A DNA stretch of 64,000 bases, taken from assembly GCA_049675585.1 (NCBI GenBank), contig JBAUAJ010000055.1, positions 55,025-119,024 of the forward strand. Direction: 5' to 3'. Origin of the DNA: Thermoplasmata archaeon (GTDB lineage: Archaea; Thermoplasmatota; Thermoplasmata; Lutacidiplasmatales; UBA184). The notes under the pieces are model-generated. The model saw nothing but the letters and a program-made list of their open reading frames with translations. It did not search any database and was not told the origin of the DNA. Shown here in pieces: positions 20,726-56,859 of the stretch. Numbering within the stretch: the first letter of the stretch is position 1; the number at the start of each line of letters is the position of its first letter. A program made the translations under genes and the position numbers.

Positions 20726-20743
20726 GTCCAATGCCCCTTGAAC
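20726..20743. repeat. degenerate motif instance GTCCAAT-gccc-CTTGAAC
   Basis: Imperfect arms. About 90 bp upstream of vapB. Confidence 0.3.
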
Positions 20744-20803
20744 CTCTTTCCTACGGCGTCCGGCTCCGGGAGCAAAGTCCAGCTACCACGAGCGAGCTAA
20801 CCC

Positions 20804-20825
20804 TTATACTGCATGCGCGCATGCA
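20804..20825 (+). promoter_or_regulatory. TATA-like box (TTATACT) plus perfect 16-bp palindrome TGCATGCGCGCATGCA upstream of vapB
   Basis: TATA centre is about 26 nt upstream of ATG 20833. The palindrome occupies -23..-8 and is a candidate antitoxin operator. Confidence 0.45.
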
Positions 20826-20832
20826 TCCCTCG

Positions 20833-21045
20833 ATGAGCAGGGCGGAAACCTCGGTCAGAGTCTCCAGAGACGTGCTCCAGCAGCTGGATCGCCTCAAAGA
20901 AACTTTCCATGTTCGAACCGCGGACGAGACCATTCGTGTGCTGATCCGCGAGCGGAGATCGCGCGCACTGACTCGGATGCTTGGCAGTGGGAAGGGGGTT
21001 GTTACTCCGTTCTCTGAGGAGGACCGTCTTGAGACTCACGATTGA
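20833..21045 (+). CDS. vapB: VapB-type antitoxin (type II TA)
   Basis: Start MSRAETSVRVSRDVLQQLDRLKE... (antitoxin-like) lies 26 nt downstream of a TTATACT TATA-like box. Overlaps the downstream PIN gene. Confidence 0.55.
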   Translation: MSRAETSVRVSRDVLQQLDRLKETFHVRTADETIRVLIRERRSRALTRMLGSGKGVVTPFSEEDRLETHD

Positions 21046-21436
21046 TACGTTTGCTTGGTTGGAACTGATTCGGGGGGGCGCGCCTGGGCGGCGTGTACGC
21101 AATCAACTCGAAGTAGCGGATAGTTGTCTTTGTCCCTCCATAGTCCTCGCCGAGATTGCCTCCAAACTTACGCGGCTCGGCGTGCCTGATCTGGTAATCG
21201 ACGGGCAGTTTCGGGCTATCCGGGAAGCCAGTCAGATTATCCCAATCGACGATGAAATCGCACTCGCGGGTGCGCATGCTCGGGAAGAGTTGCAGATGTC
21301 CGCGCGAGAACAACGAGCTCCTCTGCCGGGGCTCGCCGACGGGCTCATATTGGCGACCGCGAGGCTGACCCGTTCCCGATTATTGACCGGGGACCCCCAC
21401 TTTCGACATTGTCCTGAGACGATCTGGTTGGAGTAG
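21029..21436 (+). CDS. vapC: PIN-domain ribonuclease VapC (toxin)
   Basis: (M)RLTIDTFAWLELI... has acidic PIN residues (D..E..D..D). In-frame TTG start overlaps the vapB 3' end. Confidence 0.65.
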   Translation: MRLTIDTFAWLELIRGGAPGRRVRNQLEVADSCLCPSIVLAEIASKLTRLGVPDLVIDGQFRAIREASQIIPIDDEIALAGAHAREELQMSAREQRAPLPGLADGLILATARLTRSRLLTGDPHFRHCPETIWLE

Positions 21437-21668: not shown

Positions 21669-22169
21669 GTGTTACCCCAAAGGGGTAATAATCCGAAACA
21701 ACCTGCTTCGGTCGTGGAGCCCGAGCTGGACCCCGGCGTCGTCGCGCTGTTCGGAAGCGAGACGCGAGTCCGTACCCTCGCGGTCCTCGCCAGTGCGCAT
21801 GCCCCCATGACCGCCTACCGGATCGGAAAGGTGGGGGGTATCTCGATGCCGAAGGCCTACCGGGAGGTCGCCCGACTCGAGAAGGCTGGGCTGGTCGGTG
21901 CGCGGAAGGCCGGGTGGATCCTGCTCGACCCGGACGTCCGCGCGCTCCTACGGAAGCGCGTTCGGGTTGCGTGGGCCAACGACTGGCTGGCGGAGCGGGC
22001 TCGCCGAGTGCCGGAGCAGCAGACTCTCTTCGACCGCTTGCAGCATACCGAGCACGCAAAGCCGCCCCGTGGGTGGAAGCCAAGGGAGCCGGAGCGGTTC
22101 CAGCGCTCGGCGTTCAAGGACGAGTTGCTACGCGGGATGGGTCTGAGGTCGTCAGACCATGCTGTCTAA
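21669..22169 (+). CDS. winged-helix protein, putative antitoxin of a reduced AbiE-like module (copy 1)
   Basis: Conserved GSETRVRTLAVLA...PMTAYRIGK...GW.LLD block is shared with 23348..23839 and 53666..54151. Start may be a downstream GTG. Confidence 0.5.
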   Translation: MLPQRGNNPKQPASVVEPELDPGVVALFGSETRVRTLAVLASAHAPMTAYRIGKVGGISMPKAYREVARLEKAGLVGARKAGWILLDPDVRALLRKRVRVAWANDWLAERARRVPEQQTLFDRLQHTEHAKPPRGWKPREPERFQRSAFKDELLRGMGLRSSDHAV

Positions 22170-22764
22170 ATCGGAGTTCGACGGGATACTCGGCCCGATC
22201 GCGGACCCGACTGCCAAGATCCAGACGCTCGGAGCGTTGCTGGCGAAGAACTCAGGCATGGGCTCTCGGCTCGTTATCGCCGGTGGTTCCGCGATTTCGA
22301 TCTACTCCCACGGTCGGTACACGTCAGGAGACATTGATGTTGTAGGCGATAAGGCGCGAATCGCGCCTATCCTGAGGCGGTGGGGCTTCGCGTCTGCAGA
22401 AGACCCCGATGGACGAGTCTACTGGACAAGAGAAGATCTCGGGCTGGTCATCGACATAATCCACCGATCTCCTAGTACTGGTTCGGGTCGATCAGGACGC
22501 CTTCGGAAAATCGTCACGGACTATGGCCCCGTCAGTGTGTCGGCAGTCGAGGACCTGATCGTCCGCCGCCTGGTCTTCTGGAGCCGGGATGGAAAACCTG
22601 AACTCATGGACCAGGCCGTCGCGCTGTACGTCGAGAACCGAGAGGAGATCGACGTCCCGTACCTCGAGGGCGAGATTGGGTGGGAGAGGGCCGACGCCGC
22701 ATACCGCGAGCTGCTACGGCTTGCCGGCCCCGGCTTCCGCGAGGAGTACGAGGGCGGCCCCTAG
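22159..22764 (+). CDS. minimal nucleotidyltransferase (AbiEii/DUF1814-like NTase fold, about 200 aa), putative toxin (copy 1)
   Basis: VIAGGSAISIYSHGRYTSGDIDVV (hG[GS]-x-Dh[DE]h), a third acidic VIDII, and conserved WGF and EDLIVRRL. Overlaps the upstream wHTH gene by 11 nt. Confidence 0.55.
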   Translation: MLSKSEFDGILGPIADPTAKIQTLGALLAKNSGMGSRLVIAGGSAISIYSHGRYTSGDIDVVGDKARIAPILRRWGFASAEDPDGRVYWTREDLGLVIDIIHRSPSTGSGRSGRLRKIVTDYGPVSVSAVEDLIVRRLVFWSRDGKPELMDQAVALYVENREEIDVPYLEGEIGWERADAAYRELLRLAGPGFREEYEGGP

Positions 22765-22936
22765 GAGTGCCAACCGATCTCGGTGAATGCGAAGGTTCCG
22801 GGTGAGCCTTCCAGCACGGCAATGGCCTTACGCAAAATGCCCGTTGTGTACTCAGAGGCCATTCAGTTGGCAGATCGGATCCTTTTGTAACGAGGGAATT
22901 GTCTAAGGACCCCTCCTGAGCGTGACGGTGTCGCGG

Positions 22937-22954
22937 GTTCAATGTCCATTGAGC
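22937..22954. repeat. island inverted-repeat motif GTTCAAT-gtcc-ATTGAGC (GGG-flanked)
   Basis: Lies in the 560-bp intergenic region between mini-AbiE module 1 and module 2. Confidence 0.5.
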
Positions 22955-23301
22955 ATTCTAGGCCAGATCTCGGCCCTTCGGCGAATCAGGATCATTTCCG
23001 CTTTACTTGAACCAAGGGTTCTTCATCGGGGTGCAAGTTACGACACCGGTGTATGCGGGAGTGGGTAGGTAAGGGGTAGGTAGCGTAACGGGGGGGCTGC
23101 GTCCTCTGAACCGGGTCGCGGCAGCTCGATTCCCGGAGTATTTTGACTGAATCGGAACTAAACTCCCCGACGACTCCCCTCTCGGCTTCCTCCCGGGGGC
23201 AGGCCGTGTGACCGAAGCGCTTCCGACCGCAAACCTGGATTCACTGCGCCGCGTTGGCGTCTGGCGCCGGGTGTTTGGCTTTCCACCCCTGGCCGTATGA
23301 T

Positions 23302-23320
23302 AGTCCCTTAGAAAGGGACT
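23302..23320 (+). promoter_or_regulatory. perfect inverted repeat AGTCCCTT-aga-AAGGGACT upstream of mini-AbiE module 2
   Basis: 8-bp arms. About 30 bp upstream of the wHTH start at 23348, so a candidate autoregulatory operator. Confidence 0.4.
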
Positions 23321-23347
23321 AATACTCCAGGTGAGGGTACTCCGACG

Positions 23348-23839
23348 ATGCGAGCCCGCCCCCCCCTGGACGTTGACCCAAAGGTCGAGGGGTTCATCGG
23401 AAGCGCCAATCGAGCTCGGACGTTGGCCCCTATCGCCAGCGCCCGGCAGCCGCTCACGGCGTACCGGATTGCGTGGCTCGCCCGAGTCCCGCGATCAAAG
23501 GTCTACGGCGAGCTCCGCCGCCTCAAGTCGCTCGGCTTGGTAGCCGAACGCGAGGACCCGAAAGGCGCTTCGACGTGGATCCTGCTAGATGAGGATGCGG
23601 CGGCCTACCTCCGGAAGAAGATGCGGGTGCTCTGGTCGGGGGACATCGGCCGGTCATCCGAGGAGATGGCCCGACGGGAGCGGTCTCGGTCGCGTCCAAG
23701 TTTCGCATGGTTCAACCGATCGAAGTACCAGCCAAACCCGAAGATCGCCGCTCGAATCGCAAAGGAAGTGACCCGGCCGGTCGGGAAGGGGGAGTTCCCC
23801 GGGATGCCGGAGGACCGCCGTTCCCGAAAGAACTCGTAA
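23348..23839 (+). CDS. winged-helix protein, putative antitoxin of a reduced AbiE-like module (copy 2)
   Basis: GSANRARTLAPIASARQPLTAYRIAWLA...TWILLD. A perfect 8-bp-arm palindrome lies about 30 bp upstream. Confidence 0.55.
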   Translation: MRARPPLDVDPKVEGFIGSANRARTLAPIASARQPLTAYRIAWLARVPRSKVYGELRRLKSLGLVAEREDPKGASTWILLDEDAAAYLRKKMRVLWSGDIGRSSEEMARRERSRSRPSFAWFNRSKYQPNPKIAARIAKEVTRPVGKGEFPGMPEDRRSRKNS

Positions 23840-24397
23840 ATGCGGATCTCCCGTGCGACGTTCGACCGCGCGATGGCCTCCGCGCCGAGCGAGGTCGAGC
23901 GGATACAGTACGTCGGCGCCCTCCTCGGGAAAGCAACAAATTCCGAGCCGATCATCGTCGGTGGGTCGGCAATCTACCTTCTCGCCCCTAGCCTGGAACC
24001 GTCGCTCGACGTCGACATCATTACGGACCGCTCTTCGGCACCGAATGTGGTCGAGTCGTGGGGTTTCGTCCGACGGAACGGCAGAGTGTGGCGCCGGGAG
24101 GACCTCCGGCTCGACATCGACCTGCTCCGCGAGTTCCGTGGGAGTCGGAAGCGGTCGCTGCTTGTTGAGACGCCACACGGGGCGGTCCGGGTCGCTTGCC
24201 CGGAGGACATGATCGTGAAGCGACTCGCGGAACTAAAGCACTGGCCGACGACCCCCGCGTGGCGCCGTCGTATCGGGGAGCAGGTGACGGTTCTCCTCGG
24301 TGAGTACGGCGGGAGCCTAGATGAGGAGTACCTCACGATTCGGGCTCGCCGCGAAGAGGTCGAAGACCTGCTGGCAGATTTCCGCAAGAACAGCTGA
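23840..24397 (+). CDS. minimal nucleotidyltransferase, AbiEii-like (copy 2)
   Basis: IIVGGSAIYLLAPSLEPSLDVDII, LDIDLL, WGF, EDMIVKRL. Immediately abuts the upstream wHTH gene. Confidence 0.55.
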   Translation: MRISRATFDRAMASAPSEVERIQYVGALLGKATNSEPIIVGGSAIYLLAPSLEPSLDVDIITDRSSAPNVVESWGFVRRNGRVWRREDLRLDIDLLREFRGSRKRSLLVETPHGAVRVACPEDMIVKRLAELKHWPTTPAWRRRIGEQVTVLLGEYGGSLDEEYLTIRARREEVEDLLADFRKNS

Positions 24398-26177: not shown

Positions 26178-26915
26178 ATGCGTTGGGTCCCCGACTGGCT
26201 CGGAATTCGCCACGCCCACCTTTCGCGGTCGTTTGGGCATCGGACTTTCACTGCCCGAGATGCAAGAGACCTCCTGGCGGAGTCGGCGTCCTCAACAAAT
26301 CTGGTTCTATCCAGACTTGCTCGCGCGGGTTGGCTCGGCCATGTTTCCCAGGGGGTGTATGTGGCGATTCCGCCGGCTGCCATCCAGTCGGCACTTGTAA
26401 ACCGGTGGGATCTCCCCCTAATGGATCGTGCTTACTTTCCTTCCCTGGCTACGGCTGTAGGTCAGCTTCTGGAGCTGCTGGGAGATCGCCTCTACTCGGT
26501 GGCGCTCTTCGGATCGGCAGCGCGAGGTGAGGAACGACCCGAGAGCGACTTGGATCTAATCGTGGTAGCGGATTTTTCGTCGGGCGGCCCGGCTCGGTGG
26601 ATCGAGGAGCTGGGTTCCGTTCGGGCGGTATCTGAAGCGATTGCTTTCCGGCAGTGGGTTCAGAGCGGTGAGTACCACGCTGTGCAGTTGATACCGTATC
26701 GTCCGGAGGAGCTCACCGATCCGGGGCCCCTACTTCTCGATGCCACCGAGGACGCCATTCTCTTCGAGGATCGGGACGGTACACTTGCTTCTGCACTCTC
26801 GAATCTCCGAGGGGAGCTCCGGCGGCGGGGCGCCGTCAGATTACGGGACTCTCTAGGATTCCGGTACTGGGACCTAGGAATGCACGATCCATCCCAAGGA
26901 GAGGTACTGTCGTGA
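26178..26915 (+). CDS. wHTH-fused minimal nucleotidyltransferase (MntA-like antitoxin / NTase)
   Basis: N-terminal wHTH-like (LVLSRLARAGWLGHVSQGVYVAIP). NTase motif LFGSAARGEERPESDLDLIVV (GSxxRG...SDxDL). Confidence 0.6.
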   Translation: MRWVPDWLGIRHAHLSRSFGHRTFTARDARDLLAESASSTNLVLSRLARAGWLGHVSQGVYVAIPPAAIQSALVNRWDLPLMDRAYFPSLATAVGQLLELLGDRLYSVALFGSAARGEERPESDLDLIVVADFSSGGPARWIEELGSVRAVSEAIAFRQWVQSGEYHAVQLIPYRPEELTDPGPLLLDATEDAILFEDRDGTLASALSNLRGELRRRGAVRLRDSLGFRYWDLGMHDPSQGEVLS

Positions 26916-27403
26916 ACCTCGTCCCGGGTGCTGAATCCTTCCTTCGCCGAGCCTCCACGCGGCTGGACACCGCCGAACGGATGTTGGCTGAAGGAAATCT
27001 GCCCGAAGTAGTGCGGTTCTCCCAGGAGGCGACCGAGCACTCCCTCAAGGCCGCACTACGTCTGTTCGAAGTCGAGTATCCCAAGCGGCACGACCCAGCG
27101 GAGGCGCTTAAGGCGGGCCGTTCGAAATTTCCCCGATGGTTCCAGGTGGAGATCCCACGAATGGCCGCTCTATCCGCCATCCTTTCGGCCAACCGAGAAT
27201 TGGCGGTCTACGGAGACGAGAGAATCGGAAAAACCGCGGACGATCTCTTTTCCGATAAGGCGCAGGCCGCTGTCTGGTCGGCCGACGCACGGCGGGTCTA
27301 TCGTCTCTGCCTACGCCTCTCCAGAGCAACCCAATCGCAGAGGAAGGTGACATCGCCCTCGTCGAACCCGAAAGGGCGCAAACTCAAAGCCGGACTGGCG
27401 TAG
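26912..27403 (+). CDS. HEPN-domain protein (PF05168-like), partner of upstream NTase
   Basis: ...SQEATEHSLKAALRLFEVEYPKRHD matches the HEPN (kanamycin-NTase-associated) consensus QAaEkaLKAll...pktHd. GTGA start/stop overlap with the NTase gene. Confidence 0.55.
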   Translation: MNLVPGAESFLRRASTRLDTAERMLAEGNLPEVVRFSQEATEHSLKAALRLFEVEYPKRHDPAEALKAGRSKFPRWFQVEIPRMAALSAILSANRELAVYGDERIGKTADDLFSDKAQAAVWSADARRVYRLCLRLSRATQSQRKVTSPSSNPKGRKLKAGLA

Positions 27404-27431
27404 TTTTGGTGTTCTTCGAGCCGAAAACTGT

Positions 27432-27449
27432 GTTCAACGGCCATTGTAC
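27432..27449. repeat. island inverted-repeat motif GTTCAAC-ggcc-ATTGTAC
   Basis: Convergent intergenic region between the HEPN gene and hepT. Confidence 0.45.
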
Positions 27450-27562
27450 CCAACACCCGGCTATCGAGGGGGGTCACGACTCACAGACTGGAATTTCCAA
27501 ATCCGCACTCAAGAGGGGATAAACCTCCCGAGAGCGGGGCGACAATCAAAGTCTCATTCGCT

Positions 27563-27874
27563 TCACCGGGGAATCGACTCGATGCGCACTCTCGCCAATT
27601 TTCGCTCGAGGCCCCGTAACTCGGTCTGGACAAAATCCCAGGTATCCTTCAGGTTCAGACCACCGTATTCGTGTAGGAGCTCGTTCCGAAAGTTCGCAAG
27701 ATGCGACCACGGCACCGAGGGGTTCCGGCGTTGGGTCCGCTTCGGTACCCGCGAGGACGCCTCCCCGATGATCATGAGGTCGTACGCCACAACCTTCTGG
27801 AGGTCTCGGTCGCGTGCGAAGATCTCCCAGCCAACTCTCAGGTGTTCCCGAATATCCCGGAGCATGTCGAGCAT
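27563..27874 (-). CDS. hepT: HepT (DUF86) HEPN toxin
   Basis: IIGEASSRVPK and the Rx4-6H motif FRNELLHEY. Start taken at the internal Met (MLDMLRD). Confidence 0.65.
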   Translation of the reverse strand: MLDMLRDIREHLRVGWEIFARDRDLQKVVAYDLMIIGEASSRVPKRTQRRNPSVPWSHLANFRNELLHEYGGLNLKDTWDFVQTELRGLERKLARVRIESIPR

Positions 27875-31058: not shown

Positions 31059-31466
31059 TCATGTGGGTTGAACCGAGAATCCCGCCTGGACAAAATCCTG
31101 ATCAAAGGCAAATGCGTCGCGCATTCCGAGCGCGCGCATTACGACGAAGCTGGTGCAGTCTGTGAGACTCCAGTTCTTGTCCTCGTGAACGGCCATCAAA
31201 TCAACCGCCTCATGGTGGTGGACAGGTTCGATCCAGAAGACCTGGATTTCACCGCCTCCGCGCACTTCGTTCGCGAACGCTATCGCCGGCCCTACTCCGA
31301 GGCGTCGCCGGGTGATTGTAACCGTCTCGGCAACCACATAATTCGTTGTGACCATCTTTCCAAATTCACCCTCCATGAGTCTTCGCTGGAAGCCGACGGC
31401 TCGAGGGTGGACGCGGTCCTTAGCGTCGGCCAGCGCAAGCCAAGCGCTGGTGTCAACAAAGATCAT
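31059..31466 (-). CDS. vapC: PIN-domain ribonuclease VapC
   Basis: MIFVDTSAWLALAD... and conserved acidic residues. 4-nt ATGA overlap with the upstream antitoxin. Confidence 0.7.
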   Translation of the reverse strand: MIFVDTSAWLALADAKDRVHPRAVGFQRRLMEGEFGKMVTTNYVVAETVTITRRRLGVGPAIAFANEVRGGGEIQVFWIEPVHHHEAVDLMAVHEDKNWSLTDCTSFVVMRALGMRDAFAFDQDFVQAGFSVQPT

Positions 31467-31702
31467 CGTGAGCGCCCGTACAGCTCGTCGTCATGATGCT
31501 CTGCGGTACGGTGGCCCTTCCGCCCGCTCGCGCCGAGCGGGAATAGCTTGAAAATCGCGGCATGGGGATCAACCTTCTCATCAGCGAGATAGGCGTGCAA
31601 GGCACGGCGGACTACCTCCTTCATCGGCTCGCCGGTGGCAGCCGCACGTTGCCGAAGAAGTCGATACTCTGATTCGGGAATCTGAGCCTGCACCAGCGTC
31701 AT
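31463..31702 (-). CDS. vapB: RHH/CopG-type antitoxin (VapB)
   Basis: 79 aa. YRLLRQRAAATGEPMKEVVRRALHAYL is a ribbon-helix-helix. ATG lies 27 nt downstream of an ATTATATAAT TATA box (leaderless). Confidence 0.6.
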   Translation of the reverse strand: MTLVQAQIPESEYRLLRQRAAATGEPMKEVVRRALHAYLADEKVDPHAAIFKLFPLGASGRKGHRTAEHHDDELYGRSR

Positions 31703-45728: not shown

Positions 45729-48700
45729 TCAGGCCGAGTCCGTGAACTGTCCCGCCGTGAGGATGTATCCGGCCGAATCGCCTTCGAAGATGTCCACGTA
45801 GTACGACCCGGGGGCGTCGGGCCCAAAGAATGCGAGTCCACTGACGCTGCCGTTGTCGTCCGCTGTGAACTCGGTGGCGTACAGTCCATGGTATCCGTCC
45901 CCTTGCGTGAAGTCCAGGTAAACGACGTACCCGACTCCCGGCGCCAGTCCGGTCACCGATAGATTGACGATGGTGTCGTTCGGGCCCGAGGTGGGACTGA
46001 TCATCCCGATCGGCGTCGTCACCTCGAACGGAGTGGTCGCGTTGGCGGCGTACGAATTGTTGGCCGCCGAATCGAAGAGGTCCACGTAGTACGTCCCCTC
46101 CGAGGTGTTGGAGGATACGTTGAACGTCCCGAAGAAGCTCCCGTTGATGTCGGACGTAAGCCGGTCGACGACGGGGCCGGAAGAGTACCATACTCCCGGG
46201 GCCGTGTCGAGCTCGAGTGCATACTCCGTCCTCGGCACGAGTCCGGTGGCCCGCAGAAAGACCATCGTGTTCGGAGGGCCAGAGAGAGAGGGTAAGCCCG
46301 AGTCCAGGGAGATCTCCAGGCTCGGCGCCGTCAGTGTGAACTGGTTCGTGGCCGTCGCCGCGTACGAAAAGTTGTCCGCCGCATCAAAGAGGTCGACGAA
46401 ATACTTGCCGGCGGGGTCGCCGAATGGGGCTGTGAAATTCCCTTCGTAGCTCCCGTTCGGATCCGACATGAAGAGGGTGAACCCGTACGAGGCTGATTCT
46501 ACTCCGCGGACTGGATCTACCTCGACGGAGTACATCGTGTTTGGAAGGAGGCCGGACGCCAGCAAGTAGACGTCGGTGCCGGACGGGCCCGAAGACGGGT
46601 AGATCTCCGCGTACGCGGTCGTCACCGTGAACTGTTCCGACGCGGTGACGAGGTACGTGCCGTTCGAGAATTGCAGGTCGACGTAGTAAGTCCCGGCCGG
46701 TATGTCGGAAGGCACATTCATCGTCCCACTGTAGTTCCCGTGCGCGTCGGTGGGAAGAGCCCACACGAAGGAGAAGTCCACCACCCCCTTCGTCGTGTCG
46801 AAGGCGACCGGGTATAGCGACGTCGGCCGGAGACCCGTCGCCTGAAGCGTTACGCCCGTGCCGACCGGGCCCGAGGTGGGAGTAATCGTCACGTTCGGTG
46901 AGGTGACCGTGAAGATTCCCGCGGAGGCGACGAACCCCTGGGATCCGTAGACGCCCACGATATAGCGCACGTCCGTGGGTTGGAGCGGAACGCCGGTCAA
47001 CGGGAACTTCCCCGTAAAGTTCCCGTTCACATCCGTCGTGAACGTCCTCTCGGTGTAGACAAGGAATGTGGCCGTCGATGTGAAGTTTAGGGTGTACGAC
47101 GTGCTGGGAATCAGACCGTTCGCCGAAATCGTGATCGAGCTGTTGACCGGGCCAGAGGTCGGGCTGAGCGACACATTCCCCGCTCCCAGGGTGAAGTTCG
47201 TCCTCGCGGTGTCCCCTTCTCCACCTACCACACTTCCTACTGCGGTGATGGTGTACGGACCGAAATGTGGCGCTGAACCGACCTCGAAAGTGCAACCGCC
47301 AGTGACCTTTCCGTCGAGCAGCTCGCACGGAACGAGATCTTGTACGATGGCGCCGCTGACACCGAGGGACGAATCCGCCGCGGAAAAGCCGCTACCGGAA
47401 ATGGTCACGATATCCCCGACGACCCCCTCCGCGGGGAACAGGGTGATCGTCGGTTCTCGTACAAAGAACGAGGTCGAGGTCGTGTCTCCGGGCCCACCTA
47501 CCACGTTCCCTTTCGCGGTAATCTCGTACGATCCGTTTTCCACGGACGCCACGACAAATCTGCAACCCGTCGAGATCACACCGTCGCTGACGGGGCAGTG
47601 GATGGTGCCGAGTACATCCCCTGTGATAGTCACGGACGTGTCGGTCACGGAGAAGTTGTATCCCGAGACGGTCACGGAGTCTCCCACGACCCCCGCGTTG
47701 GGCGCGAGCGACAGAGTCGGCTCCGTCAGTACAAAGAGAGTCGTCGCCGTGTCTCCCGCCCCGCCCACGACGTTGCCGATTGCGGTGATCGTGTACGGCC
47801 CAGGGACAATCAACTCGGCCACGAAGGCGCACGGTCCAGTAATCGTCCCCGCCGTGAGCGCGCAGGCCATCGGGGCTGGTAAAACCGGGCTGTCGACGGA
47901 CACTGACACATCGGAAAGAGAAAACCCGCGCCCGCCGACGGTGATCGTATCTCCAGAAATCCCTGTTCCTGGCGAAGCCGTGATCGACGGAGACGTGAGG
48001 GTGAATGTTGCGGCCCCCGTGTCCAAAACGCCTCCCAGTGTTCCGATACCTGTTACAACGTACGGTCCCGGTGCCGCGGACCCGACCACGAAATCGCAAA
48101 CGCCGGTGATCCCGCCGACTACCAGGGAGCATACGAGCGGGATGGAGAGAATCGCTCCGGCAATCGAAACGGAGGAATCGGATGGAACGAACCCGCTACC
48201 GGTCACGGAAACAGTGTCTCCCGCTACCCCGGTCGAGGGGGTGAGCGCAAGAGAAGGAGATGTCGAAGTGACGCGAAACGAAGCGGAGGCGGTGTGGCCC
48301 TGCAGATCCGTCGCTTTGACGGTGGTCCCGCTGGTTCCGAGAGGGACCAGGAAGGAACAGCTGAACGCCCCCAAAGAATCCGTCGTGAGCGATCCACTTC
48401 GGCAGACGGTGATCGCCACCGAATCAAAGATCAGCGATTCCAATCCCGCGGATGCGGAGAAACCCGATCCTGAGACCACGACGAAGGTTCCCACGGGGCC
48501 ACTCGTCGGGGTCACGTTCAGAGAGGGTGATGCCGGATTCCCCGCTCCCCCAAAGTGAATGATCCCGAGGGCTGCCAGTCCACCGACCACCGCGAGGGCC
48601 TCGACCGCGATTACGACTCCGGCCACGACGGCCGGGGCCACCGCGAGACGCGATCGGCGGATCGAGCGGCAGCGGCCCGCGCGTCGCACCACCTTTGGCG

Positions 48701-48830
48701 CAGGGCCTCCGCCGCCTTCAAGCCTTCGGAATTTCGAGTCTGCGCCTCGAGTGCGTGATACGCCTTCCTCGAACGGCGGCGACCCTGATTTTGTTCGTTT
48801 CGACGACCGCTGCGATTCTCCTGGGTTCAA
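45729..48830 (-). CDS. giant (about 1000 aa) cell-surface protein with tandem IPT/TIG-like Ig-fold repeats and a second series of about 90-aa repeats
   Basis: N-terminal hydrophobic anchor/signal (LAVAPAVVAGVVIAVEALAVVGG). At least 5 repeats P..G..GD.VTVSG.GF.......V....L....C......C.F. Later repeats T..P.SGP.GT.V.L.A.GL.P...Y..E.D.. Many sequons. TTG/GTG start uncertain. Confidence 0.65.
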   Translation of the reverse strand: MNPGESQRSSKRTKSGSPPFEEGVSRTRGADSKFRRLEGGGGPAPKVVRRAGRCRSIRRSRLAVAPAVVAGVVIAVEALAVVGGLAALGIIHFGGAGNPASPSLNVTPTSGPVGTFVVVSGSGFSASAGLESLIFDSVAITVCRSGSLTTDSLGAFSCSFLVPLGTSGTTVKATDLQGHTASASFRVTSTSPSLALTPSTGVAGDTVSVTGSGFVPSDSSVSIAGAILSIPLVCSLVVGGITGVCDFVVGSAAPGPYVVTGIGTLGGVLDTGAATFTLTSPSITASPGTGISGDTITVGGRGFSLSDVSVSVDSPVLPAPMACALTAGTITGPCAFVAELIVPGPYTITAIGNVVGGAGDTATTLFVLTEPTLSLAPNAGVVGDSVTVSGYNFSVTDTSVTITGDVLGTIHCPVSDGVISTGCRFVVASVENGSYEITAKGNVVGGPGDTTSTSFFVREPTITLFPAEGVVGDIVTISGSGFSAADSSLGVSGAIVQDLVPCELLDGKVTGGCTFEVGSAPHFGPYTITAVGSVVGGEGDTARTNFTLGAGNVSLSPTSGPVNSSITISANGLIPSTSYTLNFTSTATFLVYTERTFTTDVNGNFTGKFPLTGVPLQPTDVRYIVGVYGSQGFVASAGIFTVTSPNVTITPTSGPVGTGVTLQATGLRPTSLYPVAFDTTKGVVDFSFVWALPTDAHGNYSGTMNVPSDIPAGTYYVDLQFSNGTYLVTASEQFTVTTAYAEIYPSSGPSGTDVYLLASGLLPNTMYSVEVDPVRGVESASYGFTLFMSDPNGSYEGNFTAPFGDPAGKYFVDLFDAADNFSYAATATNQFTLTAPSLEISLDSGLPSLSGPPNTMVFLRATGLVPRTEYALELDTAPGVWYSSGPVVDRLTSDINGSFFGTFNVSSNTSEGTYYVDLFDSAANNSYAANATTPFEVTTPIGMISPTSGPNDTIVNLSVTGLAPGVGYVVYLDFTQGDGYHGLYATEFTADDNGSVSGLAFFGPDAPGSYYVDIFEGDSAGYILTAGQFTDSA

Positions 48831-48942: not shown

Positions 48943-49842
48943 TCAATCTTGTCGAGGGGTCTTTGCGCTTGACAGGATGTGTTTCGAAAACGCCGACATG
49001 AGCGGATCGCGAAGGGAGTGCCGTCGGACGTCCGCGATCAATTCGTGTTCAAACGGAGTGAGCTCTCGAAGGAAACCAAACCGTTTTGCCGCCTCCCGGG
49101 CATCCTTGTTCCAATCCCGTTGACGACTCCGCCCAATCAGTCGTTCGAGGTCAGGCCATTCCCGGCGACCTTCGGACAAGGTACGAAGTATCTGCTCCGG
49201 ATCGAACGCCTCACGGTCGTTCCAGAGTTTGGCAACGGCGAGGAGGCGCACCAAGCCCGTGTCGAAACCCTTTCGGCCGTAGCGCATGGCATCGTAGAGG
49301 TCTCTTTCCGTGGCTCGCTGCTGAACGGCTCTCAGTTTCTCCGAGAGAGCCTCCTCAACTCGTAGGGAGAGTATCTCCGGGGGACGGAACGGAAGGGCCG
49401 AGAAGTACGGCTGGGGGAGGGGGGCCCATTGTGCCGGTGGAAGGAACGGTGCCTCTCGATAACTGACCTCGAATCGAAAAATCCCCGAGTCCCACTCGTG
49501 GGAGTAGGTCACCCGACACCCCCAGTTCTTCCGGCTTGTGCGGTACGGCTCTTGGACCTCGAATCGAACCCCGAAGTGAGCGGCATTGAACGCTTCGTTG
49601 AGCTGAGGTTCGGGATCCTCGGGCAGATTCCGATTCGTGAAGTCGAGGTCTTCGGAAAGCCGTCCCACATCTCCGGTAACCATCATGCGCAAGTAGGTGC
49701 CGCCCTTGAACACCATCCGGTCGAGCACGCCGCGGGCCGAGAGGGCATCCAGCGCGTAGAGCAGGACGATCTCTTGCTGAGCGATGTGCAGATCCACGCC
49801 CATCACGTTCGCGAACCGGTTGGCAACCGTCCGAGGGATCAT
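48943..49842 (-). CDS. abiEii: AbiEii/DUF1814 nucleotidyltransferase toxin (type IV TA / abortive infection)
   Basis: FKGGTYLRMMVTGDVGRLSEDLDF (GGTxL...R.SxDhD). Internal Met start gives a 4-nt ATGA overlap with the abiEi stop. Confidence 0.75.
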   Translation of the reverse strand: MIPRTVANRFANVMGVDLHIAQQEIVLLYALDALSARGVLDRMVFKGGTYLRMMVTGDVGRLSEDLDFTNRNLPEDPEPQLNEAFNAAHFGVRFEVQEPYRTSRKNWGCRVTYSHEWDSGIFRFEVSYREAPFLPPAQWAPLPQPYFSALPFRPPEILSLRVEEALSEKLRAVQQRATERDLYDAMRYGRKGFDTGLVRLLAVAKLWNDREAFDPEQILRTLSEGRREWPDLERLIGRSRQRDWNKDAREAAKRFGFLRELTPFEHELIADVRRHSLRDPLMSAFSKHILSSAKTPRQD

Positions 49843-50666
49843 CGGTGGTCCGTTTCGGAAAATAGCACCCGATCGGGCACGTTTCGGACAATATGCCACC
49901 GTAGGTCGTGAGGCCCGCGGCGACCGTACGTACGTGTGGCTCCGAGGGGCACCCACGGCTCCTCCGAGGTAGCTCGCCATCGGTCCGTCCACCCTCGGGG
50001 CGGGAGTTTCGAGGGATGGACTTGTTCGAGTAGGTACCCGGTTCGCAAGGCGAGGCTCCGATTCTTCATGCGCTCCAGATACCCAGACAATCGATCCCAG
50101 TCGAGACGCGGTTTAGCCCTCGCCAAGATCTGGACTGCGCCTCCCAACCCCCCTGAGAGTTCCGGACGTTCCACGCAATCGATGACGGTTCGCTCTGGAT
50201 CGCTTACTCGGACGGTCTCGCCACGTCGTCGGATGGCCTGCGTTCCAAAGAACTTGGTCGACCCAACCCGAACAATCTGGAAGTGGGCCGGGTGCGTGAG
50301 CCGCATCGAAGTGCGGGCCGTCGTTACGAGGTAGTAGACGGGGCCCGCCTGCAGAAGAAAACCCCAAAGCTCCGCGGCCGAGGCGTAGCCGAAATAGTAG
50401 GGGTGGACCAGGTGGCTCCCGAACCGCAGCGGATCTGTGTCGGGTATCGCGTCCGGCCCGTGTCGACCCGGGTTAAGCAGGTACCGTCCTCTGCCTACCC
50501 GCTGAATCCAGTCCTTACGGACTAGGTCGTGAGTCAGCTTACGGGCGAACCCCCGACTGACACCGGCCAAAGTCTGCACATCATCCAGTGACAGCTCCTC
50601 CTTTCCCTCTGATTCGAGGGAGAGGACGACGCGAGCTTCCTTCGCCGAAAGCGAACGCTGGGACAC
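49839..50666 (-). CDS. abiEi: AbiEi antitoxin (wHTH, AbiEi_4-like)
   Basis: N-terminal EARVVLSLESEGKEELSLDDVQTLAGVSRGFARKLTHDLVRKDWIQRVGRGRYLL plus a C-terminal domain. Directly upstream of abiEii. Confidence 0.7.
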   Translation of the reverse strand: MSQRSLSAKEARVVLSLESEGKEELSLDDVQTLAGVSRGFARKLTHDLVRKDWIQRVGRGRYLLNPGRHGPDAIPDTDPLRFGSHLVHPYYFGYASAAELWGFLLQAGPVYYLVTTARTSMRLTHPAHFQIVRVGSTKFFGTQAIRRRGETVRVSDPERTVIDCVERPELSGGLGGAVQILARAKPRLDWDRLSGYLERMKNRSLALRTGYLLEQVHPSKLPPRGWTDRWRATSEEPWVPLGATRTYGRRGPHDLRWHIVRNVPDRVLFSETDHR

Positions 50667-50912: not shown

Positions 50913-52175
50913 CTACTGGGTGGACGATTCGTTTCGATTTCTCGGAAAGCTGTCAAGTTGAAGTACGTCGATGTACGGTTGGTAGCGGAAGAATCGATTG
51001 CGTTTCTGACCGGTGACCTCTACAAGCAGCTTCATTTCGACGAATCGATCCACGAGGGCGTTCGCCGGTGGGTAGGTAGTTCCGATCGCGGTCGCCACGT
51101 CTTTCACTGTGATGACGGGTCTGTGGAACAGTTGTCCGAGCAGCCTGAGTCCCGCGCCCGACCTCTTCCCGAGCTCCCCCCCGACGAGGCTCTCATGTTC
51201 GGACTTTATGGACAGGACGGAGCGCGCAGTATCCGTCGCCTGAATCGAGGTTTCCCGGACTCCCCGCAAGAAAAACTCGATCCAACCTTCCCAATCCCCG
51301 TCATCTCGCACGCGTTGAAGTCGTCGGGTGTACTCATCTCGGTTGCATAGAAAATAGTATGAGAGGTACAGGACCGGCCGGCGGAGGGCGCCACATTTTG
51401 TGAGCAGCAGCGTGACGAGGAGACGACCGATCCTACCGTTACCATCCAGGAATGGGTGGATGGTCTCAAACTGGGAGTGAGCGAGTCCTCCACGCAGCAG
51501 AGGTGGTTCCAGAGTATCGGCTTGGACGAACTCCATCAGCTCTCGCATCAGCTGCGGGGTCTCGTTGGGGGGCGGGGGTACATAGTCGGCGGTCGCGGGA
51601 CTGCTACCTCTCGGGCCAATCCAGTTCTGGCGGGACTTCAGCATCCCGGGCTCTGCCTCATCGCCACGAACTCGATGCAGCAGGATCTTGTGCGTATCCT
51701 GCAAGAGTTCAGTCGAGAGCGGGGCTCCCGCGCGGACTCGCTGAAGCGCGCCGTTGAGTGCTCGCACGTAGTTTGCAACCTCCAGGACGTCGCGAGGGTA
51801 TGATTCTCGTTTTGCACCGGCTTCAAAATCCAGGAGATCGATGAGCGTCGAGTGAGTCCCCTCGATCTGACTCGACAGCACGGCTTCCTTTCGAACATAA
51901 CTGTAGACAAAGAAGTCTGGATCGGGGACCACCTCGGCCGCACCGTCGAGCCGGCCCAATTCGGTCGACGCCGTTGCAAGCAGCCCCAGAATCGACGCAC
52001 TAAGTTGGAGCGGGGGATCTGGCGGCAATCCTTTGGGATGGAAGGCCCGCCATCCATCGGGTGTCGTGGCGTACACCCCCGCGCGGCCGGGATGGTACGG
52101 CGTCGAGCCCCCTACCTTTAACATAGAACGAACTCCACTCAGTGTGAAAGGTAAATCATATTCCCTATAATACAA
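50913..52175 (-). CDS. Fic-family protein (AMPylase/phosphocholine transferase fold) with C-terminal wHTH
   Basis: Fic motif HPFLDGNGRIGR. N-terminal inhibitory-like SSQIEGTHS motif. Start may be a downstream Met. Confidence 0.75.
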   Translation of the reverse strand: MYYREYDLPFTLSGVRSMLKVGGSTPYHPGRAGVYATTPDGWRAFHPKGLPPDPPLQLSASILGLLATASTELGRLDGAAEVVPDPDFFVYSYVRKEAVLSSQIEGTHSTLIDLLDFEAGAKRESYPRDVLEVANYVRALNGALQRVRAGAPLSTELLQDTHKILLHRVRGDEAEPGMLKSRQNWIGPRGSSPATADYVPPPPNETPQLMRELMEFVQADTLEPPLLRGGLAHSQFETIHPFLDGNGRIGRLLVTLLLTKCGALRRPVLYLSYYFLCNRDEYTRRLQRVRDDGDWEGWIEFFLRGVRETSIQATDTARSVLSIKSEHESLVGGELGKRSGAGLRLLGQLFHRPVITVKDVATAIGTTYPPANALVDRFVEMKLLVEVTGQKRNRFFRYQPYIDVLQLDSFPRNRNESSTQ

Positions 52176-53102: not shown

Positions 53103-53669
53103 TCACTTCTCGTGAGACGAATTTTTGGCCATGGTCTCTCGCAAGCTTGCCAATTCGGCCTCGAGATTTTCTTGCCGAGCGCGGTGGGTCAGGTACTCCC
53201 AGTCAAGCTTCGGCAATGCAACTAAGAGGAGCGCGTTGGGATACTCGTCTGGTTCGTTCCAGAATTTGATGAGGGCAAGTCGCCCAATGATCAGGTCCTC
53301 GATAGATCCGACTCGAACTTGACCATAGGGAGTACTGACCACTCGTGAGAGACGCATCGAGCCGCTGACTCTCGGGCCGACGACGTCAAGAACTATTTTC
53401 CAGTCAAGGCGAGCCCACTCTCGGCCGGGCTGGTTGAATCCCCACCGCTCCAGGACGGCCGCGATCGTATCGCGCGGCCCACAAACGTCGATGTCACCAG
53501 AAACGTAGGCGCCCTCGGTGTAGATTTCCATTGCGGAACCGCCGACGACCACTAGATCATCTGGGCCGAGGCCGGCCTCCTTTCTCAAGAGCGCCGCGAA
53601 GTATAGGATTCTTCGGTCGTCTTCCTCAATCTTTTCGAGAATCGCCTGAATCTCATCTGAAGTGGTCAT
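53103..53669 (-). CDS. minimal nucleotidyltransferase, AbiEii-like (copy 3)
   Basis: LVVVGGSAMEIYTEGAYVSGDIDVCG, VLDVV, WGF, EDLIIGRL. 4-nt overlap with the upstream wHTH gene. Confidence 0.55.
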   Translation of the reverse strand: MTTSDEIQAILEKIEEDDRRILYFAALLRKEAGLGPDDLVVVGGSAMEIYTEGAYVSGDIDVCGPRDTIAAVLERWGFNQPGREWARLDWKIVLDVVGPRVSGSMRLSRVVSTPYGQVRVGSIEDLIIGRLALIKFWNEPDEYPNALLLVALPKLDWEYLTHRARQENLEAELASLRETMAKNSSHEK

Positions 53670-54151
53670 CGCCCTTTGTGCCTCGAGACTCGGAGACCAG
53701 CAGCTCGAAGCAGTTCGTTCTTGGTTCGAGACTGGCTGAACTCCCGCAACACCTTCGGTAGCTTACCAGTCCTGCTCGAACTTATTCGACTCAATTTCTT
53801 TGATACACGAACAGATTCGCTAGAATTGGGCTCGCCGGAGGTCCCCTCCGACTGAATTGGTAGCGAACCCTCGAACAACGGTCCCTGCCCCTCGCAAAAC
53901 GCCCGAACTCTATCGTCCAAGAGTACCCAGCCCCCGTCGCGAAGTCCCACAATGCCTGTCGCTGACAAGTTCTTCAATTCTAGGTAGACGTTGGGTGGTG
54001 AAAGGTCGGCGAGCTTTGCGATCCGGTACGCAGTCATCGGGATTCGTGTGCCCGCCAAGATAGCGAGCGTGTACGCACGCGTCCGACTGCCAATTACAGG
54101 AATGAGCGAGTCGCCCACGGTTGGGCCAGACGCACTTAGTAGTAATAACAA
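53666..54151 (-). CDS. winged-helix protein, putative antitoxin of a reduced AbiE-like module (copy 3)
   Basis: VIGSRTRAYTLAILAGTRIPMTAYRIAKLADL...GWVLLD. Annotated TTG start; true start uncertain. Confidence 0.5.
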   Translation of the reverse strand: MLLLLSASGPTVGDSLIPVIGSRTRAYTLAILAGTRIPMTAYRIAKLADLSPPNVYLELKNLSATGIVGLRDGGWVLLDDRVRAFCEGQGPLFEGSLPIQSEGTSGEPNSSESVRVSKKLSRISSSRTGKLPKVLREFSQSRTKNELLRAAGLRVSRHKGR

Positions 54152-54173
54152 TAATGGTGAAACACACTACTAT

Positions 54174-54191
54174 GCGCAACGACGATCGAAC
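54174..54191. repeat. motif instance GCGCAAC-gacg-ATCGAAC
   Basis: 23-40 bp upstream of the module-3 wHTH start, just beyond an AT-rich TATA-like segment. Confidence 0.35.
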
Positions 54192-56225: not shown

Positions 56226-56480
56226 ATGTCGGTGAAGACGGTTACCCTCTCCTCCGATGCCTACGACTCGCTTGCCCGTCTCAAGCGGGATGGCGAGAGT
56301 TTCAGTGAGGTCGTCAGGAGAATCACCGGCTCGCAGGTCCTCTTGACCTCCTTCGCTGGCGCATGGAGCGGTGCCCCGAAAGCCCAACTCGAAGAGATTC
56401 GGAAATCGATCCAAGCCGCCGATCGGCAGTCGAAAGCGAAGGTTTTGAGACTATCCCTCGAGGGTACCAACGGTGGTTAG
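56226..56480 (+). CDS. vapB: VapB-type antitoxin
   Basis: MSVKTVTLSSDAYDSLARLKRDGESFSEVVRRI (ATG verified at 56226). Overlaps the downstream PIN gene. Confidence 0.55.
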   Translation: MSVKTVTLSSDAYDSLARLKRDGESFSEVVRRITGSQVLLTSFAGAWSGAPKAQLEEIRKSIQAADRQSKAKVLRLSLEGTNGG

Positions 56481-56859
56481 CCTCGATAGCTCCTTCCTCA
56501 TTGATCTACTCGCGGGCGAGCGAAGAGCGGTCGAGAAGGCCCGGTCCCTCGATGACTCGGGCGAGCCGAGATACATCACCCCGCCTGCGGCCGCGGAAGT
56601 TCTCCTGGGAGCGTACCGGCTCGGAGGTCCGTACCTTGCCAGGACCGAGTTCCTGATCAACGCCCTTCCCCTCCTCCCGTTCGACTCCCGAGCATGCCAT
56701 GAGGCGGGAAGAATCGGAGCGGAACTTGCTCGACGAGGGACTCCGCTCGGGCAAGGTGACCTATTCATCGGAGCGATCACGCTCCGCCACGGGCAGCGGC
56801 TCTTGACGAGGGATAGATCATTCCGCCTTGTTCCTAACCTCACGACCGAGAGCTACTGA
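56473..56859 (+). CDS. vapC: PIN-domain ribonuclease VapC
   Basis: (M)VSLDSSFLIDLLAGE... with acidic PIN residues. GTG start overlapping the vapB stop. Confidence 0.65.
   Translation: MVSLDSSFLIDLLAGERRAVEKARSLDDSGEPRYITPPAAAEVLLGAYRLGGPYLARTEFLINALPLLPFDSRACHEAGRIGAELARRGTPLGQGDLFIGAITLRHGQRLLTRDRSFRLVPNLTTESY

Follow-up and report, generated by a model that had tools for sequence, protein, structure and literature searches.

Paired winged helix-turn-helix and compact nucleotidyltransferase genes in an uncultured Thermoplasmata archaeon as candidate toxin-antitoxin-like modules

Introduction

A stretch of 64 kb from the metagenome-assembled genome of an uncultured Thermoplasmata archaeon (hereafter the window, meaning the whole stretch of DNA that was analysed) carries three two-gene pairs, each made up of a gene for a winged helix-turn-helix (wHTH) protein followed by a gene for a small nucleotidyltransferase (NTase). 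What do these pairs do, and do they belong to the AbiE toxin-antitoxin (TA) systems? An earlier examination of the nucleotide letters (the sequence-only reading) had taken them for a compact and uncharacterised variant of AbiE, labelled type IV and triplicated in one archaeal island. To our knowledge, few TA or defence systems are known from uncultured Thermoplasmata. The explanation that we favour, with moderate confidence, is that each pair forms an autoregulated two-gene TA-like module whose effector is a compact, MenT1-like NTase.

Results and Discussion

Three intact gene pairs

The pairs are covered by the locus tags WBG19_02645-02660 and WBG19_02790, and all of their open reading frames (ORFs) are intact. 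In pair 1, wHTH-1 (151 aa; 21714..22169, + strand; GTG start) overlaps NTase-1 (201 aa; 22159..22764, + strand) by 11 nt. In pair 2, the stop codon of wHTH-2 (163 aa; 23348..23839, + strand; ATG start from the ORF table) directly abuts the ATG of NTase-2 (185 aa; 23840..24397, + strand), with 0 nt between them; the motif S-L-D-V-D and the other invariant residues of NTase-2 are intact. Pair 3 lies on the opposite strand, where wHTH-3 (150 aa; 53666..54118, − strand; GTG start set by comparison with its orthologous locus, L027) and NTase-3 (188 aa; 53103..53669, − strand), identified by the ORF table, the NTase alignment and a hidden Markov model (HMM) match, share a 4-nt ATGA overlap. Computation shows the two genes of each pair to be translationally coupled. 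This arrangement of overlapping or abutting genes is the one that had been described from the letters, with two start codons moved: those of wHTH-1 and wHTH-3 had first been placed too early, at 21669 and 54151, and were corrected to 21714 and 54118 on the evidence of public gene calls and of orthologous loci, which open with M-E-P-E or M-x-D-S-L at the matching positions.

HMMs of the partners and of the NTases found exactly three copies each in the window and nothing further. The NTases are 32-37% identical to one another and the wHTH proteins 37-38%, in keeping with the roughly 30% estimated before, and all of the motif blocks that had been quoted are present as invariant columns. The wHTH proteins share GS..R..TLA..A....P.TAYRI and W.LLD, and the NTases share GGSA, S.D.D, WGF, a later Asp (D99) and ED.I..RL. 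The 536-nt gap between pairs 1 and 2 (22765-23300) contained no convincing ORF, and Rfam and tRNA scans of the whole window, this gap included, returned no RNA genes.

Fold and active site of the nucleotidyltransferase

The AlphaFold2 (AF2) model of NTase-1 (predicted local distance difference test score, pLDDT, 92.2; predicted template-modelling score, pTM, 0.86) has a first part of seven strands flanked by helices and, after it, a four-helix bundle. At the level of this model, computation shows the protein to adopt a bi-lobed Pol-beta-type nucleotidyltransferase fold. Its secondary-structure elements agree with the published layout of MenT1 (Rv0078A) of M. tuberculosis, a protein of about 190 aa with a seven-strand sheet, a four-helix bundle and the catalytic residues T39, D41, K137 and D152 (PMC10435456). 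When the model was compared with the PDB by Foldseek, MenT1 and the MenAT1 complex (8an4, 8an5) were the top matches (E=3.5e-5 to 6.5e-5, probability 1.00), with template-modelling (TM) scores of 0.39-0.54 and root-mean-square deviations (rmsd) in the range 5-8 A. Next in rank came a fungal NTase-like protein, the aminoglycoside NTase ANT(2'')-Ia, the AbiEi C-terminal domain, JHP933, TM1012 and CCA-adding enzymes.

The active site is well conserved. The motif residues of NTase-1 are G42-G43-S44, S56-x-D58-x-D60, D99 and E131-D132...R137-L138. In an alignment of 51 NTase sequences, G43, A45, D60, W75, D99, E131, D132, R137 and L138 are invariant, and G42, S44 and D58 are conserved in at least 90% of the sequences. 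The homologues have the motif G-G-S...[S/T]-x-D-h-D...D in common. The set of metal-binding carboxylates (D58, D60 and D99 in copy 1) is shown by computation to be complete. A Ser or Thr stands two residues ahead of the first Asp in 51/51 close homologues and in 61 of the 62 wider relatives, and in both sets the second Asp never varies. This Ser/Thr occupies the position of T39 in MenT1, S78 in MenT3, S67 in MenT4 and the Ser of SEDLD in an AbiEii protein encoded in the same window. The form [S/T]-x-D-h-D is the one that characterises the MenT/AbiEii toxins.

MenAT1 (MenT1 with MenA1, Rv0078B) is thus the known system nearest in structure, and the likeness extends beyond the size and the two lobes of the NTase to the Ser/Thr before the first catalytic Asp, the position of the partner gene upstream and a partner proposed to act via a short helix. 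The systems differ in that no sequence similarity between them is detectable and that MenA1, with 68 aa, has no DNA-binding domain, whereas the archaeal partners carry one ahead of a C-terminal tail. The hosts of the present pairs are archaea. Because MenT1 is itself a toxin of about 190 aa within the MenT/AbiEii group, the compact size of the NTases, which the sequence-only reading had regarded as new, has a precedent.

The same structural comparison brings in the main rival explanation, since ANT(2'')-Ia fits the model about as well as MenT1 does. Each pair could be an NTase that modifies a small molecule, either an antibiotic or a metabolite, in the manner of ANT(2'')-Ia, LinA or KNTase, and that is controlled by the wHTH protein as an ordinary repressor, with no toxin involved. 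ANT(2'')-Ia is among the best Foldseek matches (E=2e-4 to 1e-3, TM up to 0.61, rmsd 4.8 A), and it too is a compact, two-lobed enzyme of about 177 aa. Resistance genes are often under the control of MarR/ArsR-type repressors. Makarova et al. (2009, PMC2701414) warned that some regulator-enzyme pairs that look like TA systems are really resistance modules. Against this stand the [S/T]-x-D-h-D form of the motif, which is that of MenT/AbiEii, and the Pfam scans, in which no aminoglycoside NTase family was matched by the window NTases or their close homologues. ANT(2'')-Ia also differs in having no partner protein, no sequence similarity to the present NTases and no paired multi-copy module. Resistance genes do not typically occur in a TA-dense region as three to several diverged copies in one genome, each copy having operators of its own. 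With the evidence on the partner given below, we regard a small-molecule enzyme as unlikely.

The nucleotidyltransferase is not a member of the AbiEii family

The window contains a canonical AbiE pair at 48943..50666, which was recognised as such by Pfam, PADLOC and PDB searches and served for comparison. Its AbiEi antitoxin (49839..50666, − strand) matched Pfam AbiEi_1 (E=6.7e-12) and PADLOC AbiEi (E=2e-49), and its 299-aa AbiEii toxin (48943..49842, − strand) matched Pfam AbiEii (E=3.9e-23), PADLOC (E=9e-54) and PDB chain 6Y56 (E=6.8e-19). The family of this toxin, PF08843, was matched by none of the three window NTases, by one of the 51 close homologues (E=0.053) and by none of the 62 wider relatives. 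PADLOC gave a single weak AbiEii match (E=1.6e-3), for NTase-3 only. Profile-profile comparison of the NTase alignments with an alignment of 30 AbiEii sequences by hhalign covered 36-42 columns, comprising the N-terminal helix and motifs I-II, at a probability of 1-3%, with a sensitivity limited by the low diversity of the AbiEii alignment (69-82% identity). The profile kinship with AbiEii that had been expected was therefore not found.

In the short region that did align, GGS/GGT and SxDhD of the NTases are in register with AbiEii and match GGT...SEDLD of the window AbiEii. The prediction that the NTases would have a Pol-beta fold, with their Asp residues aligned to the catalytic S-x-D-h-D of AbiEii, was borne out by the AF2 model and by this register. 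Other features of the family are missing. The DUF1814 proteins have been defined by motifs I and II (hG[G/S]...DhD, with catalytic Asp, an x15 spacing and an Arg in motif II), by a Lys flanked by hydrophobic residues in motif III (KLxAaxxR) and by +DxxD in motif IV (Dy et al. 2014, PMC3985639). In the NTase family the x15 spacing of motifs I-II is not present, the spacer being 2 residues shorter than in AbiEii, as seen from a gap in the hhalign alignment. In place of the motif II Arg there is a conserved Tyr four residues before the first Asp, with no conserved Arg column nearby. No conserved column corresponding to motif IV was found past the E-D...R-L helix in the alignments of either close or wider NTases. 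E131-D132-x4-R137-L138 can be set against E-x4-K-L of AbiEii and MenT4, a correspondence made by manual alignment only, and motif III may thus persist with Arg in place of Lys. The comparison with MenT1 gives a similar picture, in which [S/T]-x-D is kept, K137 possibly corresponds to R137, and no conserved residue of the NTase family was found to match D152.

Both architectures have a wHTH-containing regulator encoded upstream of a Pol-beta NTase and upstream inverted repeats suited to autoregulation. In AbiE (AbiEi/AbiEii, DUF1814-COG5340, including MenAT3 and MenAT4), however, the NTase is about 100 aa longer, and its partner has the AbiEi C-terminal domain, in place of which the present partners have a linker and a tail of about 20 aa. 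We conclude that the NTase is of the same broad fold class as AbiEii and nearest in shape to the compact MenT1, and that it is not a member of PF08843. That the pair is an AbiE system by family membership is not supported; that it works like an NTase module of the MenT/AbiE type is the leading hypothesis. Of the variant that had been proposed, the TA-like architecture and the absence of a curated family stand, and the assignment to AbiE does not. The label type IV has no basis here, and AbiE itself has been moved to type VII in a recent preprint (10.64898/2026.01.19.700257).

A large family without a described function

The nearest Pfam families to the NTase are, by sequence, DUF6036 (PF19502) and DUF2204 (PF09970), both of unknown function. 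They consist of proteins of similar size, and Pfam describes neither a function nor a partner for them. The window NTases themselves scored below threshold for DUF6036 (17.4, 15.9 and 19.5 bits against a gathering cut-off of 23.6), whereas 33/51 close homologues and 39/62 wider relatives gave weak to moderate matches (best E=2.6e-8). Among the 62 wider relatives, 25 matched DUF2204 and 8 matched NTP_transf_5, and these relatives are homologous to the window NTase family over the full length (hhalign 100%). On this evidence from sequence we take the kinship with DUF6036/DUF2204 to be real in spite of the sub-threshold scores. An NCBIfam scan of the window NTases gave no match, and a PDB sequence search with the NTase profile retrieved nothing, even at E=10. 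No curated family covers the NTase at threshold, and the family is uncharacterised.

A word-indexed search with the NTase gave more than 1,159 matches, almost all of them unnamed and from Thermoplasmata. By exhaustive search, 1,481 clusters (50% identity) were collected at E<=1e-3, 636 at 1e-10 and 78 at 1e-30, nearly all of them 180-205 aa in length. A scan of a genome collection yielded only 7 loci, all from Thermoplasmata. In the literature that was searched, DUF6036 was not mentioned, DUF2204 appeared only in connection with the unrelated protein DolP, and nothing was found on NetFlax together with nucleotidyltransferase. The part of the literature on TA systems and NTases of Thermoplasmata that was covered contained no description of the regulator-NTase pair.

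CCA-adding enzymes, which are among the weaker fold matches, raise the question of whether the NTase might be a non-toxic housekeeping enzyme that modifies or repairs RNA ends and is co-transcribed with a regulator by chance. The distribution of the family is patchy and multi-copy, with paralogues only about 33% identical, and the neighbourhood in the window is TA-dense. In addition, a variant with a catalytic Asp-to-Gly replacement persists in four contigs, and copies in bacteria occupy a small insertion next to which the hisF 3' end is duplicated. All of this speaks against a housekeeping role, which we consider very improbable. The Gly variant was found in contigs from different samples (L019-L022), where the NTase motif reads YVSMDIGVV, the otherwise invariant second catalytic Asp being replaced. 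It may represent a naturally inactivated copy whose partner gene is still kept.

The partner protein and its C-terminal tail

Having considered the enzyme, we turn to its partner. Pfam gave weak matches of the wHTH partners to TrmB, HTH_20, MarR and IclR. In the AF2 model of wHTH-1 (pLDDT 85.5), the wHTH domain spans residues 7-82 and a long helix residues 88-111, and a linker of low complexity leads from there to a short helix (133-141); the best Foldseek matches of the model were MarR, SmtB, HlyU and NsrR. As modelled, the partner is a generic wHTH protein of the MarR/ArsR/TrmB type. The partners have no AbiEi C-terminal domain and gave no match to AbiEi_1 or AbiEi_4, unlike the canonical AbiEi of the window. 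No HEPN match was obtained either.

In the alignment of 51 partner sequences, the C-terminal half is variable except for a tail with the consensus F-x-R-S-x-x-K-[DN]-x-[LI]-L-x-x-x-G-L-R-x-S. Outside the wHTH domain, no column other than K135 is invariant, and conservation reaches 90% or more at R131 and S147. The tail of wHTH-1 (FQRSAFKDELLRGMGLRSS; 22098..22154, + strand) is predicted to form the short helix and is the proposed NTase-binding module. By the same partner alignment, wHTH-2 has a divergent tail (AKEVTRPVGKGEF...RRSRK; 23765-23824, + strand), and the tail motif of wHTH-3 (FSQSRTKNELLRAAGLRVS) lies at 53684-53740 on the − strand. Tail subtypes track NTase subtypes.

Co-occurrence of the two genes was examined in 7 genome and 80 metagenome loci, together with loci obtained by exact protein look-up. 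A tail-bearing partner lay directly upstream of the NTase gene, ending at or overlapping its start, in all of the 35 evaluable close loci, which bears out the expectation that the pair would recur elsewhere. The partner was a wHTH protein in 28 of these loci. In the remaining 7, which form a sister clade (L017-L022 and L024), it was a zinc-ribbon protein of about 95 aa, with a CxxC...CxxC N-terminus and the C-terminus RRRRAKDELLAKHGMRSS, as at 1016-1300 of L018. An HMM built from the wHTH tails alone retrieved these zinc-ribbon partners (E=2e-6 to 1e-3). At E<0.1, it found nothing else among 4,006 ORFs save one wHTH partner's own tail (L023). The tail was thus kept with the NTase while the DNA-binding domain was swapped, which argues for the tail as the NTase-interacting module, in a contact that we infer from co-inheritance only. 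It is the strongest support for this role of the tail, though indirect. The tail of P0212, a wHTH partner, is nearly the same as that of the zinc-ribbon type, suggesting that the N-terminal domain was exchanged recently. The module is also found in two or three tandem copies in L006.

In distant bacterial relatives of the NTase, which score 50-75 bits, no partner is encoded upstream. In 51/51 evaluable loci, the 3' end of their NTase gene is overlapped by a conserved gene for a basic protein of about 70 aa, which contains a conserved SSSSD run. The possibility that the hisF-linked bacterial relatives are partnerless solo genes was ruled out by this gene. Homology of its product to the archaeal tail was rejected as well (tail HMM E>1; hhalign probability 0.05%). 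A strict two-gene module with interchangeable partners, in either gene order, is typical TA behaviour.

These findings also weigh on the small-molecule alternative, under which a ligand-sensing repressor would need no conserved tail that is retained when the wHTH domain is exchanged for a zinc ribbon, and the enzyme would hardly be paired in bacteria with a 70-aa basic protein that is not a regulator.

They bear equally on an explanation in which the NTase acts on its partner. It would nucleotidylylate the tail, or be made to phosphorylate it, and so toggle the DNA-binding protein, the pair being a self-contained switch that follows the enzymatic type VII logic of MntA-HepT but is aimed at a transcription factor. 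NTases that modify their own TA partner are known, as in MNT-HEPN, the minimal nucleotidyltransferase (MNT) systems, and possible target residues are at hand in the invariant Lys and near-invariant Arg and Ser of the tail and in the SSSSD run of the bacterial partner. The HEPN-MNT systems (HepT-MntA, type VII) resemble the present pairs in being two genes with a minimal NTase that are abundant in archaea, one of them in this very window. In those systems, however, the NTase is the antitoxin and the partner a HEPN RNase, whereas here the partner is DNA-binding and the NTase carries an added four-helix bundle. A switch with no output gene beyond itself has no evident function, the operons hold only two genes, and the structural neighbours of known function act on RNA or small molecules, not on proteins. 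We judge this explanation to be improbable.

Several observations concern single loci. The bacterial NTase and 70-aa protein genes follow hisF directly in L079 (2136-3912) and L084 (2136-3841), and likewise in L039, L062 and L081. In L079 and L084, a second copy of the hisF 3' end (85-148 nt, 79-91% identity) closely follows the cassette, and there Pfam detects a C-terminal fragment of His_biosynth. To judge from sequence, these loci look like an insertion of about 0.8-1 kb that carries only the two-gene module and restores the hisF end. Two distant NTase relatives, P0297 and P0339, have another small, overlapping downstream gene (L095 2272-2505 and L098 2208-2474), whose product of 77-88 aa ends in ...G(R/E)L(I/V)x(V/L)GPRR(Y/W), a possible fourth partner type. 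An apparent natural fusion of wHTH and NTase in L033 (2422-3576) was discarded after comparison with the near-identical two-gene locus L034 (675-1831), which revealed a frameshift in the tail region; the fusion is an assembly error or a pseudogene.

Palindromes upstream of the pairs

Since the wHTH-1 start was moved to 21714, the palindrome of pair 1 falls upstream of the gene and not inside it. This operator-like sequence, TTACCCC-aaa-GGGGTAA followed by TAATA, lies at 21672..21688 and ends 26 nt before the start codon. The operator-like palindrome of pair 2, TAGTCCCTT-aga-AAGGGACTA (23301..23321; 9+3+9 bp), likewise ends 26 nt before its ATG. A palindrome had been claimed for every copy, and for pairs 1 and 2 this is so. 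For pair 3 there is no more than an imperfect inverted repeat with the core TAGTAGT ... ACTACTA (54132..54177; about 14 nt from the wHTH-3 start), the 12-nt arms of which are 83% complementary and stand wide apart, at 22 nt.

Perfect inverted repeats with arms of at least 7 bp were present in 11/24 distinct upstream regions of homologous loci and thus more often than by chance, the rate in windows drawn at random from these loci being 13.5%. The right half-site of pair 1, GGGTAATA, recurs with unchanged spacing to the start codon in the orthologous loci L012, L006, L007 and L008. Among orthologues of pair 3, the half-sites TAGTAGT, TATTAGT and TAATAGT recur; L027 has the same half-sites as a tight 7+7+7 palindrome, and related palindromes occur in L011 and L037. 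Half-sites are thus conserved within orthologous groups and different between paralogous groups. Palindromes with TAATA in them lie 18-40 nt upstream of the wHTH start. In many of the palindromes, TAATA or TATTA has a spacing that would be fitting for the TATA box of an archaeal transcript with a short leader.

A proposed mechanism and its weight

Taken together, the pairs show the generic features of type II-style TA modules. Their genes are small, overlapping and strictly co-occurring, a DNA-binding domain is combined with a separate module and with upstream palindromes, and the modules are multi-copy, patchy and located near TA or defence genes. In the TA-like module that we favour, the wHTH protein would bind its own palindrome, cover the region of the TATA box and the B recognition element (BRE), and repress the operon. 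Its tail would bind the NTase and silence it, by one of two routes suggested by analogy. The tail may occupy the active-site cleft, as MenA1 does, or it may cause the NTase to phosphorylate its own conserved Ser/Thr, which precedes the first Asp by two residues. Auto-phosphorylation has been shown for MenT1 T39 and MenT3 S78, and precedents for these mechanisms have been described (PMC10435456, PMC11375011 and preprint 10.64898/2026.01.19.700257). Once freed, the NTase would add nucleotides to RNA 3' ends, most likely the tRNA acceptor end, and translation would be arrested. As tails and operators differ among the paralogues, the three pairs are probably insulated from one another.

Several points weigh against this explanation. 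Toxicity, neutralisation, DNA binding and substrate are all computational predictions, and the tail-NTase contact has co-inheritance as its sole ground. With AbiEii, neither sequences nor profiles show significant similarity outside the NTase motif, which is generic. Where DUF1814 has its catalytic Lys, an Arg apparently stands here, as judged by manual alignment only, and nothing conserved corresponds to the motif IV Asp. The structural likeness to MenT1 is moderate (TM about 0.5) and no better than that to ANT(2'')-Ia (TM 0.54-0.61).

A more specific proposal is that the tail is the substrate or the allosteric trigger of the NTase, being itself nucleotidylylated or inducing auto-phosphorylation of the Ser/Thr beside the catalytic Asp. 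We hold this to be doubtful. If true, the tail would be a portable control peptide of about 20 residues, able to sit on a wHTH domain or on a zinc ribbon, and antitoxin-induced auto-phosphorylation of NTases would be extended to archaea and outside DUF1814. The universally conserved Ser/Thr makes such auto-phosphorylation, a mechanism proposed only recently, testable outside DUF1814.

If the TA-like explanation holds, an uncharacterised family of about 1,500 clusters (50% identity) would be added to the NTase toxins of the MenT/AbiEii type, and this group would be extended into uncultured Thermoplasmata. A tail of about 20 residues on two unrelated DNA-binding domains provides a natural experiment in antitoxin modularity, to which bacteria add a third, unrelated partner with reversed gene order. 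Three insulated paralogues with their own operators in one genome would make a compact system for the study of cognate-pair specificity. New here are the partner tail motif, the zinc-ribbon exchange with the tail kept, the bacterial partner of about 70 aa, and the TAATA palindromes conserved within orthologous groups.

Genomic context

The window is dense in other TA genes, which are set among ordinary metabolic and transporter genes. Directly upstream of pair 1 (20731-21436), a probable VapB-like gene with no Pfam match is followed by a gene for a PIN-domain, VapC-like protein. Besides the AbiE pair, the window contains an MNT (NTP_transf_2)-HEPN pair with a HepT-like gene, a Fic protein gene and two more PIN pairs, one with a ribbon-helix-helix (RHH) partner and the other with a VapB partner. 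These further TA genes lie at ~26178-27874, ~31059-31702, 50913-52124 and ~56226-56859, all but the third of these ranges having been mapped from gene calls on the same contig.

Near the end of the window (~62387-63669) there is a fragment of a gene for a TraG/VirD4-like coupling protein (TrwB_AAD_bind, T4SS-DNA_transf), which hints at an integrated conjugative element. Adjoining the AbiE pair, a gene at 45729-48830 (− strand) encodes a highly repetitive, Ser/Thr/Gly-rich protein of 1,033 aa with faint TIG/MG2 matches, probably a surface protein to judge from its sequence, and an ORF of 496 aa runs antisense to it.

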